Assembly: GCA_050257775.1 (NCBI GenBank)
Contig: JBLMXM010000027.1
Location: 1-46,490 of the forward strand
From: Hyphomicrobiales bacterium
GTDB lineage: Bacteria; Desulfobacterota; Desulfobacteria; Desulfobacterales; SpSt-501
Reading direction: 5' to 3'
Length of the DNA: 46,490 bases
A program made the position numbers and the translations under genes. Below are positions 26,294-27,001 of the stretch, piece by piece. Each line of letters starts with the position of its first letter. Within the stretch, counting starts at the first letter, position 1. The notes under the pieces are model-generated. The model worked only from the letters and a program-made list of their open reading frames with translations. It searched no databases and was not told the origin of the DNA.

Positions 26294-27001
26294 ATGTGCG
26301 AATTGAGCCGGTTACAGGAAACCTATTCATTCATTTTAAAATTTTTTGTTGAGACTGGCCAAGCGCCTTTCTATACTGAGATCGCCGCTGATTTGGGGGT
26401 TCCGGTGGAAGATGGTCGCAAAGCCCTCCATGCGCTTTTGGGGCTGGGAACGGCCGCATGGGTATATCCGAATACAGAATACATCGTCTCCTTTTCTCCT
26501 TTCAGTAACCTTCCCACACAATACAGGATCGCCATCGAAGGGCAGCAGAAGTGGTTCGGCCAATGAGGGTTTGAATCGCTAGCGGTCAGCTGGCTCTTCA
26601 CAGGAAAAACAGTTCAAATCGAGGCTCCTTGTCTTGATTGTGGATTGCCAATTCGGGTGGAAATGAAAGATGGTTTAATAAGGACTGCTGAACCGCAAGG
26701 CTTGGTGGGCTACACTTCAGTACCCGTTCGGGATTGGGCTAATGACTGGCCTTATAATTGAAGTACCATGAACCTCTTCCGGTCGGAAGATCATGTTCAG
26801 AATTGGAGCGGGTTCCAGCCGGGCACCGAAGAAGGTATCGTCGATTTGTATGTTTTGATGAAGCTTTTCTCAGTAGATACTTTTACCAGACGGTTGGACC
26901 CCGATTATGTCTCCCGGATGAAGGAGTATCGAGCTGCCCGTGGCGCCGCTTGGGGAGAGATCATGAAAAGGAATCCGTTCTGGCAACCAAAAGCTCCTTA
27001 G
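26294..27001 (+). CDS. MerB-family (alkylmercury lyase-like) protein with two in-frame TGA codons at the catalytic Cys positions; candidate selenoprotein (235 codons, U91 and U156)
   Basis: Strong RBS AAAGGAGG. Track ORFs 26294..26566 and 26768..27001 share a frame, and the intervening 26567..26758 is open in that frame. MerB-like blocks: KWFGQ-[TGA]-GFESL (compare MerB YAWCALDTL), APCLDCGLPIRV, and PYN-[TGA]-STMNLFRSEDHVQNW (compare MerB SFCCHVHFFAS...W). A SECIS-like hairpin follows each TGA. Confidence 0.75.
26573..26599 (+). promoter_or_regulatory. SECIS-like hairpin 1
   Basis: GAA-UC-GCUAGC-[GGUCA]-GCUGGC-UC-UUC. The apical GG begins 17 nt after TGA 26564-26566. The upper stem is 6 bp (one G-U pair) and the lower stem is 3 bp. 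Confidence 0.65.
26767..26795 (+). promoter_or_regulatory. SECIS-like hairpin 2
   Basis: CAUGA-ACC-UCUUCC-[GGUC]-GGAAGA-UCAUG. The upper stem is a perfect 6 bp, with a 3-nt 5' bulge and a 5-bp lower stem. The apical GG begins 19 nt after TGA 26759-26761. Confidence 0.7.

Follow-up and report, generated by a model that had tools for sequence, protein, structure and literature searches.

The subject of this report is a gene at positions 26294..27001 on the forward strand of contig JBLMXM010000027.1, of which a stretch of 46,490 nt was analysed and is referred to as a whole as the window. The gene very probably encodes a true double-selenocysteine protein of the MerB (alkylmercury lyase) fold, in which two in-frame UGA codons are both decoded as selenocysteine (Sec), each with its own selenocysteine insertion sequence (SECIS) element. 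The explanation that best accounts for the whole, with a probability put at about 0.62, is a single functional gene whose double-Sec product acts as a carbon-metal lyase. The finding is robust, and the clade is widespread in anaerobic sediment bacteria and overlooked by annotation; the function discussed below is a predicted one. The gene and its parts are as follows:

26281-26287, forward strand: Shine-Dalgarno sequence AAGGAGG, 6 nt 5' of the ATG, from the sequence
26294..27001, forward strand: complete coding sequence (ATG 26294, TAG 26999-27001) for a predicted 235-residue MerB-fold selenoprotein with two in-frame UGA codons, from translation, Pfam, 160 homologous loci, and coding signature
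26294..26473, forward strand: N-terminal three-helix, winged-helix-like domain, residues ~1-60, from the AlphaFold2 (AF2) model of homologue P0011 and weak Foldseek matches
26501..26848, forward strand: MerB catalytic domain, residues 70-185, matching PF03243 positions 1-114 of 126, from Pfam, alignment, and Foldseek
26564..26566, forward strand: UGA codon 91, predicted to be read as Sec, equivalent to MerB Cys96, from alignment and homologues
26572..26600, forward strand: SECIS-like hairpin 1, with lower stem UGAA/UUCA, upper stem GCUAGC/GCUGGC (26578-26594), and apical loop GGUCA (26584-26588), from folding and conservation
26573..26575, forward strand: GAA, Glu94, equivalent to the MerB proton donor Asp99, from alignment
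26630..26641, forward strand: Cys113-Leu-Asp-Cys116 (CxxC) motif, invariant in family alignments
26759..26761, forward strand: UGA codon 156, predicted to be read as Sec, equivalent to MerB Cys159, from alignment and homologues
26767..26795, forward strand: SECIS-like hairpin 2, with lower stem CAUGA/UCAUG, upper stem UCUUCC/GGAAGA (26775-26790), and apical loop GGUC (26781-26784), from folding and conservation

The first-pass annotation of this DNA had read two open reading frames (ORFs), 26294..26566 and 26768..27001, as parts of a single interrupted gene. They are indeed in one frame, which is also open through the intervening 26567..26758, and the sole internal stops of the resulting 235-codon frame are TGA 26564-26566 (codon 91) and TGA 26759-26761 (codon 156). 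The peptide strings it had likened to MerB, KWFGQ*GFESL, APCLDCGLPIRV, and DWPYN*STMNLFRSEDHVQNW, where asterisks represent stop codons, are all found in the translation. At the beginning of the segment between the two TGAs there is neither a start codon nor a ribosome-binding site. The homologous ATG in locus L165 has a Shine-Dalgarno sequence equal to that of the window gene, at equal spacing. In the window, a stop lies in frame five codons upstream of the ATG, and the 720 nt 5' of the gene (25574-26293) include no ORF of 90 or more residues and no Rfam or tRNA match.

Comparison with homologues supports the reading of these stops as Sec. The sample comprised 160 loci, namely the best 80 of 173 relatives in GTDB species-representative genomes and the best 80 of more than 547 metagenome contigs. 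Among the genome loci, 76 have TGA at both positions, three have TGC/TGA, and one has TGC/TGC; among the metagenome loci, for which the scan had been aimed at a subclade with Cys at position 91, 79 are TGA/TGA and one is TGT/TGA. Pooled, this gives 155 TGA/TGA loci, four with TGC or TGT at the first site and TGA at the second, and one TGC/TGC. Codon 91 is thus TGA in 155 of 160 loci and TGC or TGT in the other five, while codon 156 is TGA in 159. Over ~230 codons, and at 52–67% protein identity, none of the 160 loci has a scattered extra stop or a frameshift.

The Cys/Sec pairs whose existence had been proposed as a check are found: both columns exchange with Cys codons only. Cys occupies them in solved MerB structures, in the rare close homologues L016, L163, and L164, and in more distant full-length relatives; because these last carry Cys at both columns, Cys is taken as the ancestral state at each. 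The exchange can be followed over a short distance at codon 91, which is TGA in L081 (3274-3276, a JGI contig) and TGC in L064 and L161 (10274-10276 in the latter), two Microflora Danica contigs. These genes are near-identical across a 720-nt alignment, and the hairpin is unchanged; the L161 contig is rich in split genes, so a sequencing error is possible for its TGC.

The codon positions of 152 TGA/TGA sequences carry a clear coding signature on both sides of each stop. Entropies at positions 1, 2, and 3 are 0.30, 0.26, and 1.26 before the first TGA, 0.76, 0.46, and 1.54 in the 26567-26758 segment, and 0.81, 0.58, and 1.57 after the second TGA, with the third position at 2–5 times the first and second in all three. 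Since third-position entropy is far above that of the other positions, the middle 64 codons are concluded to be translated. Three of the four points on which the first-pass annotation had staked its reading were examined (amino-acid conservation of the middle segment, Cys in the TGA columns, and further stops in orthologues), and all came out in its favor.

Each TGA was also said to be followed by a hairpin with the geometry of the Escherichia coli fdhF SECIS and an apical GGUC(A) loop. Folding bears this out for both, with loop positions no more than 1 nt from those of fdhF. Counting from the U of UGA, the GGUCA loop of site 1 occupies nt 21-25 (17 nt after the UGA) and the GGUC loop of site 2 nt 23-26 (19 nt after it); the fdhF element folds with GGUC at nt 22-25. 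The comparator was a 46-nt E. coli sequence, 100% identical in >5,400 E. coli genomes and located inside a gene annotated “selenocysteine-containing.” Folding z-scores are modest (−1.03 for site 1, −1.62 for site 2), but since authentic fdhF scores equally weakly (−1.33), this is no argument against the window hairpins. Like fdhF, these are stem-loops within coding sequence, just 3' of the UGA, with a GGUC loop and similar stability. They differ from it in stem sequence, in that the fdhF bulged U is not obvious, and in being two independent elements on one short mRNA; for the window hairpins, SelB binding is predicted.

Hairpins of this kind are infrequent in the window. When stems of 6 bp or more carrying an [AG]GU loop were sought at a comparable distance after each TGA trinucleotide, they were found at 5 of 1,540, two of them the in-frame TGAs of the MerB-like gene and three lying out of frame within other genes. 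Among the TGA members, all six upper-stem pairs of hairpin 1 are intact in 150 of 155. When both hairpins were imposed as an explicit structure on 77 TGA/TGA sequences, 95.7% of pair cells were standard, versus 43–57% with the partners slid by 1–3 columns. Helix 1 of hairpin 1 is 97.8% paired across these sequences, and its changes are all one-sided and pair-preserving; helix 3 of hairpin 2 is 96.5% paired, with one compensatory C-G to U-A change in four sequences. Stem variation as a whole is nearly all of the one-sided, pair-preserving type (G-U to G-C, G-U to A-U).

Codon choice within the hairpins is under strong synonymous-site constraint. In hairpin 2, Leu161 is CTC in 67 of 67 cases, Phe162 TTC in 77 of 77, Arg163 CGG in 74 of 76, Ser164 TCG in 76 of 76, and Glu165 GAA in 76 of 77; for equal amino acids elsewhere in the gene, synonymous codons are used freely, with entropies of 1–2.5 bits. 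In hairpin 1, synonymous codons are nearly fixed at positions 95, 96, and 99. Third-position entropy drops to 0.69 in hairpin 1 and 0.40 in hairpin 2, compared with 1.26–1.57 elsewhere. These values, with the TGA/TGA pattern in 155 of 160 loci and the lack of any other stop, agree with the first-pass argument that two stops so placed are not the work of chance or of a decaying gene.

Assignment to the MerB family is supported at the levels of profile, alignment, and predicted fold. With Cys placed at both stops, the translation matches Pfam MerB (PF03243) over residues 70-185 at 70 bits (E 2.4e-19), against a gathering cut-off of 27. Alignment to solved MerB structures, by single sequence and by family profile, puts codon 91 at Cys96 and codon 156 at Cys159, so the proposal that both TGAs fall on MerB catalytic thiols stands; codon 156 also aligns with the single Cys of MerB2. 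Glu94 aligns with Asp99 and Cys113 with Cys117. The positions of the MerB catalytic trio, Cys96/Asp99/Cys159, are therefore all present in the alignment, with Sec/Glu/Sec as their predicted occupants, analogous in chemistry but not the same residues. Every one of the 80 genome loci encodes Glu94 by GAA or GAG, and Asp is found at this position in a few protein clusters. Cys113 and Cys116 are invariant columns across the family alignments, the second having no counterpart in MerB; the pair may serve in metal hand-off or as a redox couple.

For structure prediction, AF2 was applied to P0011, a natural Cys/Cys homologue 58% identical to the window protein, with a 61-sequence family alignment. The model is of high quality (predicted local distance difference test, pLDDT, 93.9; predicted template modeling score, pTM, 0.88). 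In a Foldseek search of the PDB, its top 11 matches were all MerB or MerB2, at E-values of 2e-10 to 2e-7, with the next match at 0.5; 3f0o, 3f2f, and 5c17 were found at 2e-10 to 5e-9, with a template modeling (TM) score of 0.56/0.67 at E 2e-10. The winged helix-turn-helix (wHTH) character suggested for the N-terminus fares less evenly. Three helices (3-21, 27-34, and 38-50) are indeed modeled there with pLDDT >90, but the Foldseek matches to LexA- and DtxR-type wHTH domains are weak and local (E >0.5), and there is no Pfam match to this domain in the window protein. The window protein is classed as a member of the MerB-fold family and, on its NCBIfam scores given below, not as an orthologue of characterized MerB or of the selenoprotein SaoL considered next.

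MerB itself (EC 4.99.1.2; plasmid R831b; structures 1S6L, 3F0O, 3F0P, and 3F2F) and MerB2 (5C17) share their Pfam family and fold with the window protein, and MerB also shares the three active-site positions, the structural Cys117, and the N-terminal helical domain. The two are only ~20% identical, however, and the window protein has UGA (Sec) in place of both ligand Cys residues, Glu for Asp99, Ser for Cys160, and an extra Cys that makes up the invariant CxxC. Its gene differs from merB in being chromosomal and solitary, with no merR, merT, merP, or merA nearby, and in having anaerobes as hosts.

A closer precedent is SaoL, the “selenocysteine-assisted organometallic lyase” (NF040728), a MerB-like predicted selenoprotein whose single Sec occupies the Cys159 position as part of a CU dipeptide, while Cys and Asp are kept at the Cys96 and Asp99 positions; it is encoded in a conserved nine-gene sao locus, with a distribution skewed to Firmicutes (Haft & Gwadz, bioRxiv 10.1101/2022.07.06.499078). 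Since it was described in 2022, a MerB-like selenoprotein is not in itself categorically new. SaoL and the window protein have in common their family, a Sec at the Cys159-equivalent ligand, anaerobic hosts, database entries cut at the UGA, and a function that is inferred. The window protein differs in having two Sec, no CU dipeptide (residues 155-157 are Asn-Sec-Ser, the family consensus Ala-Sec-Ser), Glu in the role of the acid, and a gene neighborhood devoid of sao genes. Its score against NF040728 is 39.3 bits, versus a cut-off of 140, and identity with SaoL was rejected on all three counts tested (hidden Markov model score, CU motif, and sao locus). The first-pass statement that no characterized Sec-containing MerB was known thus has to be qualified by the published prediction of SaoL, while the double-Sec clade is distinct from it.

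A 2026 review lists 119 prokaryotic selenoprotein families and subfamilies, counting different Sec positions as different subfamilies; its MerB-like entry is SaoL only (CU, one Sec), and a small subset of the families have two or three Sec (PMC13188914). The 2007 selenoproteome of the Olavius symbiont lists no MerB-like family (PMC1976440). No description of a double-Sec MerB family was found in the open-access literature searched, although one in a closed-access source is possible, and the clade has no NCBIfam model. It would appear to be a second, independent-looking clade of MerB-family selenoproteins, with Sec at both metal ligands. More than one Sec UGA per polypeptide is also found in archaeal FrhD/VhuD (two Sec), whose fold and chemistry are unrelated; unlike those of other multi-Sec proteins, the two Sec of the window protein are predicted to be both ligands of a single metal site.

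Each UGA is very probably served by its own downstream SECIS, with the GGUC loop spaced as in fdhF, where SelB-GTP-Sec-tRNA(Sec) binds. If the protein is a carbon-metal lyase, which is slightly more probable than not, its action could be envisaged by analogy to MerB as follows. The selenolates of Sec91 and Sec156 would coordinate the soft metal, or metalloid, in an organometallic substrate, and Glu94 would protonate the leaving carbon, cutting the carbon-metal bond and leaving the metal ion on the Sec pair. More speculatively, Cys113-x-x-Cys116, or external sulfide or thiols, might then remove the metal from the diselenolate and so permit turnover. For MerB, the mechanism has been established from structures 3F0P and 3F2F. 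Sec is ionized at neutral pH, and a selenolate has a higher affinity for soft metals than a thiolate has; such an enzyme could therefore capture trace substrate in sulfide- and thiol-rich anoxic habitats.

The physiological substrate is a matter of speculation, with methylmercury a tentative candidate. A broader ecological role, in which the clade would degrade methylmercury or other organometals and organometalloids (methylated arsenic, tin) independently of mer operons in anoxic sulfidic sediments or soils, has to be considered improbable on present evidence, more so than the methylmercury suggestion. If it were true, selenium at both ligands would let the enzyme out-compete sulfide and thiols for trace substrate, and no enzyme known earlier would have two selenolates forming a catalytic metal site.

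A number of observations weigh against a Sec-containing lyase. The gene is not accompanied by a mer operon, and ORF clustering across 81 loci brought out no conserved neighborhood. The protein misses the NCBIfam MerB equivalog cut-offs (NF033555 and NF009710) by a wide margin, at 24.6 bits versus 200 and 33.5 versus 193. Glu replaces Asp at the acid position, and the structure was predicted for P0011, a 58%-identical Cys/Cys homologue. Two selenolates at one site would be expected to bind Hg(II) with extreme tightness, a difficulty for product release and hence for turnover. As regards Sec insertion, selA, selB, selD, and tRNA-Sec were not found in the 46-kb window or in 1.5 Mb of homologous flanks, a sample too small to be informative, so that Sec machinery in the source genome is assumed on taxonomic grounds. 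The hairpins have no Rfam match, whether the whole window is searched with gathering thresholds or 26540-26840 with E-values up to 10, which is discounted here as evidence against a SECIS. Covariation is minimal, with one pair showing a double change, and a shuffle control was uninformative since the stem columns are nearly invariant; the case for the hairpins consequently rests on conservation under synonymous constraint, not on covariation. Finally, the expectation that hairpins would be confined to TGA-containing members was not borne out. They persist in two of three Cys/Cys members (L163 and L164) and in three of four Cys91 members (L064, L065, and L157), where they look like relics of recent Sec-to-Cys conversion; in the Cys/Cys member L016 both are lost.

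The most substantial rival accepts the double-Sec MerB-fold protein and denies it turnover as a lyase. It might instead trap or chaperone soft metals with very high affinity, act as a “suicide” demethylase good for a single turnover, form a redox-active diselenide or selenenylsulfide center working with the CxxC, or be the sensor module of a one-component regulator acting through the N-terminal winged-helix domain. This is possible, if less probable than the lyase, and several of the points above speak for it: there is no MerA-type mer partner to accept the metal and no conserved neighborhood, and the scores are far under the MerB equivalog cut-offs. The invariant CxxC beside the site is typical of redox and metal-transfer motifs, the N-terminal domain locally matches DNA-binding wHTH folds, and the strength of Hg-Se bonds, as a matter of general chemistry, makes product release difficult. 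Yet the full MerB catalytic constellation is kept, including an acid at the Asp99 position, of which a pure binding site would have no need; MerB has an equal N-terminal domain without known DNA binding; and the wHTH matches are not significant (E >0.5). A carbon-metal lyase remains the preferred reading on this account.

The other rivals deny that Sec is inserted at all. If the TGAs were true stops, the gene would yield a 90-residue winged-helix peptide, with or without separately initiated downstream peptides; if they were leaky, near-cognate Trp or Cys tRNAs might read through them. Gene callers do produce exactly such fragments, and the Sec machinery of the source genome is, as noted, assumed only. 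This is nevertheless very unlikely given a middle segment that is clearly coding yet has no start or ribosome-binding site, TGA held at both columns in 155 of 160 loci with no drift to TAA or TAG, exchange with Cys codons only, and a SECIS-type hairpin under synonymous constraint after each TGA. A decaying merB homologue with two chance nonsense mutations, as two in-frame stops in a gene outside a mer operon might at first suggest, is scarcely credible when 155 of 160 loci, drawn from many species and sharing 52–67% protein identity, show the identical two TGAs and no other stop or frameshift, with purifying selection on all three segments; the survey of stops and the codon-position entropies together refute it. 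An alternative code, with TGA read as Trp or Gly, can be given as little weight. Trp does appear at both columns in 45 public protein clusters, but TGA terminates 21 of the 35 Pfam-supported genes in the window and is internal to none of them, which excludes such a code here; Thermodesulfobacteriota and similar carriers use the standard code, and the Trp calls seem best explained by the gene models discussed below. Insertion of Sec at both sites thus remains the favored interpretation of the two TGAs.

The first-pass annotation had anticipated that standard gene callers would split the gene, and the public sets examined indeed hold fragments of ~90, 155, and 75 residues, or full-length versions with Trp at both sites. 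Among the best 120 protein clusters, the 45 with Trp are full length and most likely derive from code-4 gene models on short metagenome contigs. A further 38 have Cys at 91 and end exactly at residue 155; 28 end exactly at residue 90; and three are full length with Cys at both positions. Public names in the clusters looked up are “hypothetical protein,” “Alkylmercury lyase,” and “organomercurial lyase,” the entries named as lyases ending at 156 residues, as does MGH7323260.1 (“organomercurial lyase”), the one GenBank entry seen. Carriers of the gene number at least 173 among species representatives and more than 547 among metagenome contigs. Surveys that count merB will miss or mis-score it, because public sets hold fragments or spurious Trp residues.

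Most carriers belong to Desulfobacterales, Syntrophales, and other Thermodesulfobacteriota (“Deltaproteobacteria” metagenome-assembled genomes, MAGs), with a few Nitrospinota, Dehalococcoidia, Chloroflexia, and Thermodesulfovibrionales. Three complete MAG chromosomes, CP070652.1, CP070746.1, and CP070694.1, are among those with the gene. Thermodesulfobacteriota are among the lineages richest in selenoproteins (PMC13188914). One locus, L080, is from a MAG labeled Olavius-associated Delta 1, and a large selenoproteome has been documented for the O. algarvensis Delta 1 symbiont (PMC1976440). Five MAGs have two paralogous double-TGA copies on separate contigs (L013/L027, L011/L029, L038/L069, L044/L066, and L055/L072), which hints at substrate diversification.

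Which genes let anaerobes that lack a mer operon degrade organometals is an unsettled question (review PMC10114901), to which the double-Sec MerB relative would be a specific candidate answer, with clear mutational predictions for U91C, U156C, and E94A. Should metal binding be all that the protein does, it would nonetheless represent a new type of metal-handling protein based on selenium. The gene may also be of use in studies of recoding. Bacterial proteins with two Sec are rare, and with two SECIS elements <200 nt apart this gene offers a compact natural model for double recoding; its fdhF-type loops may make it expressible in E. coli.

In one subclade (P0092–P0117), known from N-terminal fragments 52–76% identical to the window protein, the frame extends 54 residues upstream, as in P0094 (L165:10001-10165). 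The extension has a strong ribosome-binding site of its own, and its sequence (...EATRRKFLKLLGLTGTVLSV...SMA|L) fits the consensus for twin-arginine (Tat) export signals, while the internal ATG retains its own Shine-Dalgarno sequence. Among the 160 loci, anything similar was seen in one (L051). From its sequence, the longer form may be an exported isoform.

The window as a whole is ordinary chromosomal DNA of a Gram-negative bacterium, at 56.9% G+C, with genes for opp-type and liv-type ATP-binding cassette (ABC) transporters, an M24 peptidase, D-Glu cyclase, a major facilitator superfamily (MFS) transporter, pxpABC, ruvABC, and tolQRAB-pal-ybgF. Neither mer genes (merR, merT, merP, or merA) nor sao genes, sel genes, or tRNA genes are present in its 46 kb. 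The MerB-like gene, whose neighbors are the liv-type ABC transporter and the MFS transporter, is solitary on the chromosome, outside any mer or sao operon. In the clustering across 81 loci, no ORF family was found in more than ~18 loci or adjacent in more than six, and the highest-ranking “families” were artefactual, produced by the splitting of the gene; functional inference from operon structure was dropped because the neighborhood is not conserved.

The MFS transporter ORF (27033-28403) opens with a TTG only 31 nt beyond the stop codon of the MerB-like gene, but the Pfam match of the ORF begins at residue 69, and there is a promoter-like site at 27138-27167. Co-transcription is doubtful, since the true MFS start is probably further downstream. 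On the contig of P0078, an MFS gene also adjoins the MerB-like gene, on the opposite strand. In the window (18491-19831) and in both other well-annotated contexts inspected (L163:9436-10584 and L165:4692-5774), the MerB-like gene has a Creatinase_N/Peptidase_M24 gene no more than ~7 kb away, which may be coincidence. Unrelated to the MerB-like gene, the OppC-like (15434-16600) and OppD-like (16489-17607) ORFs, as listed mechanically, have 112 nt in common, and OppD probably starts at a later codon.

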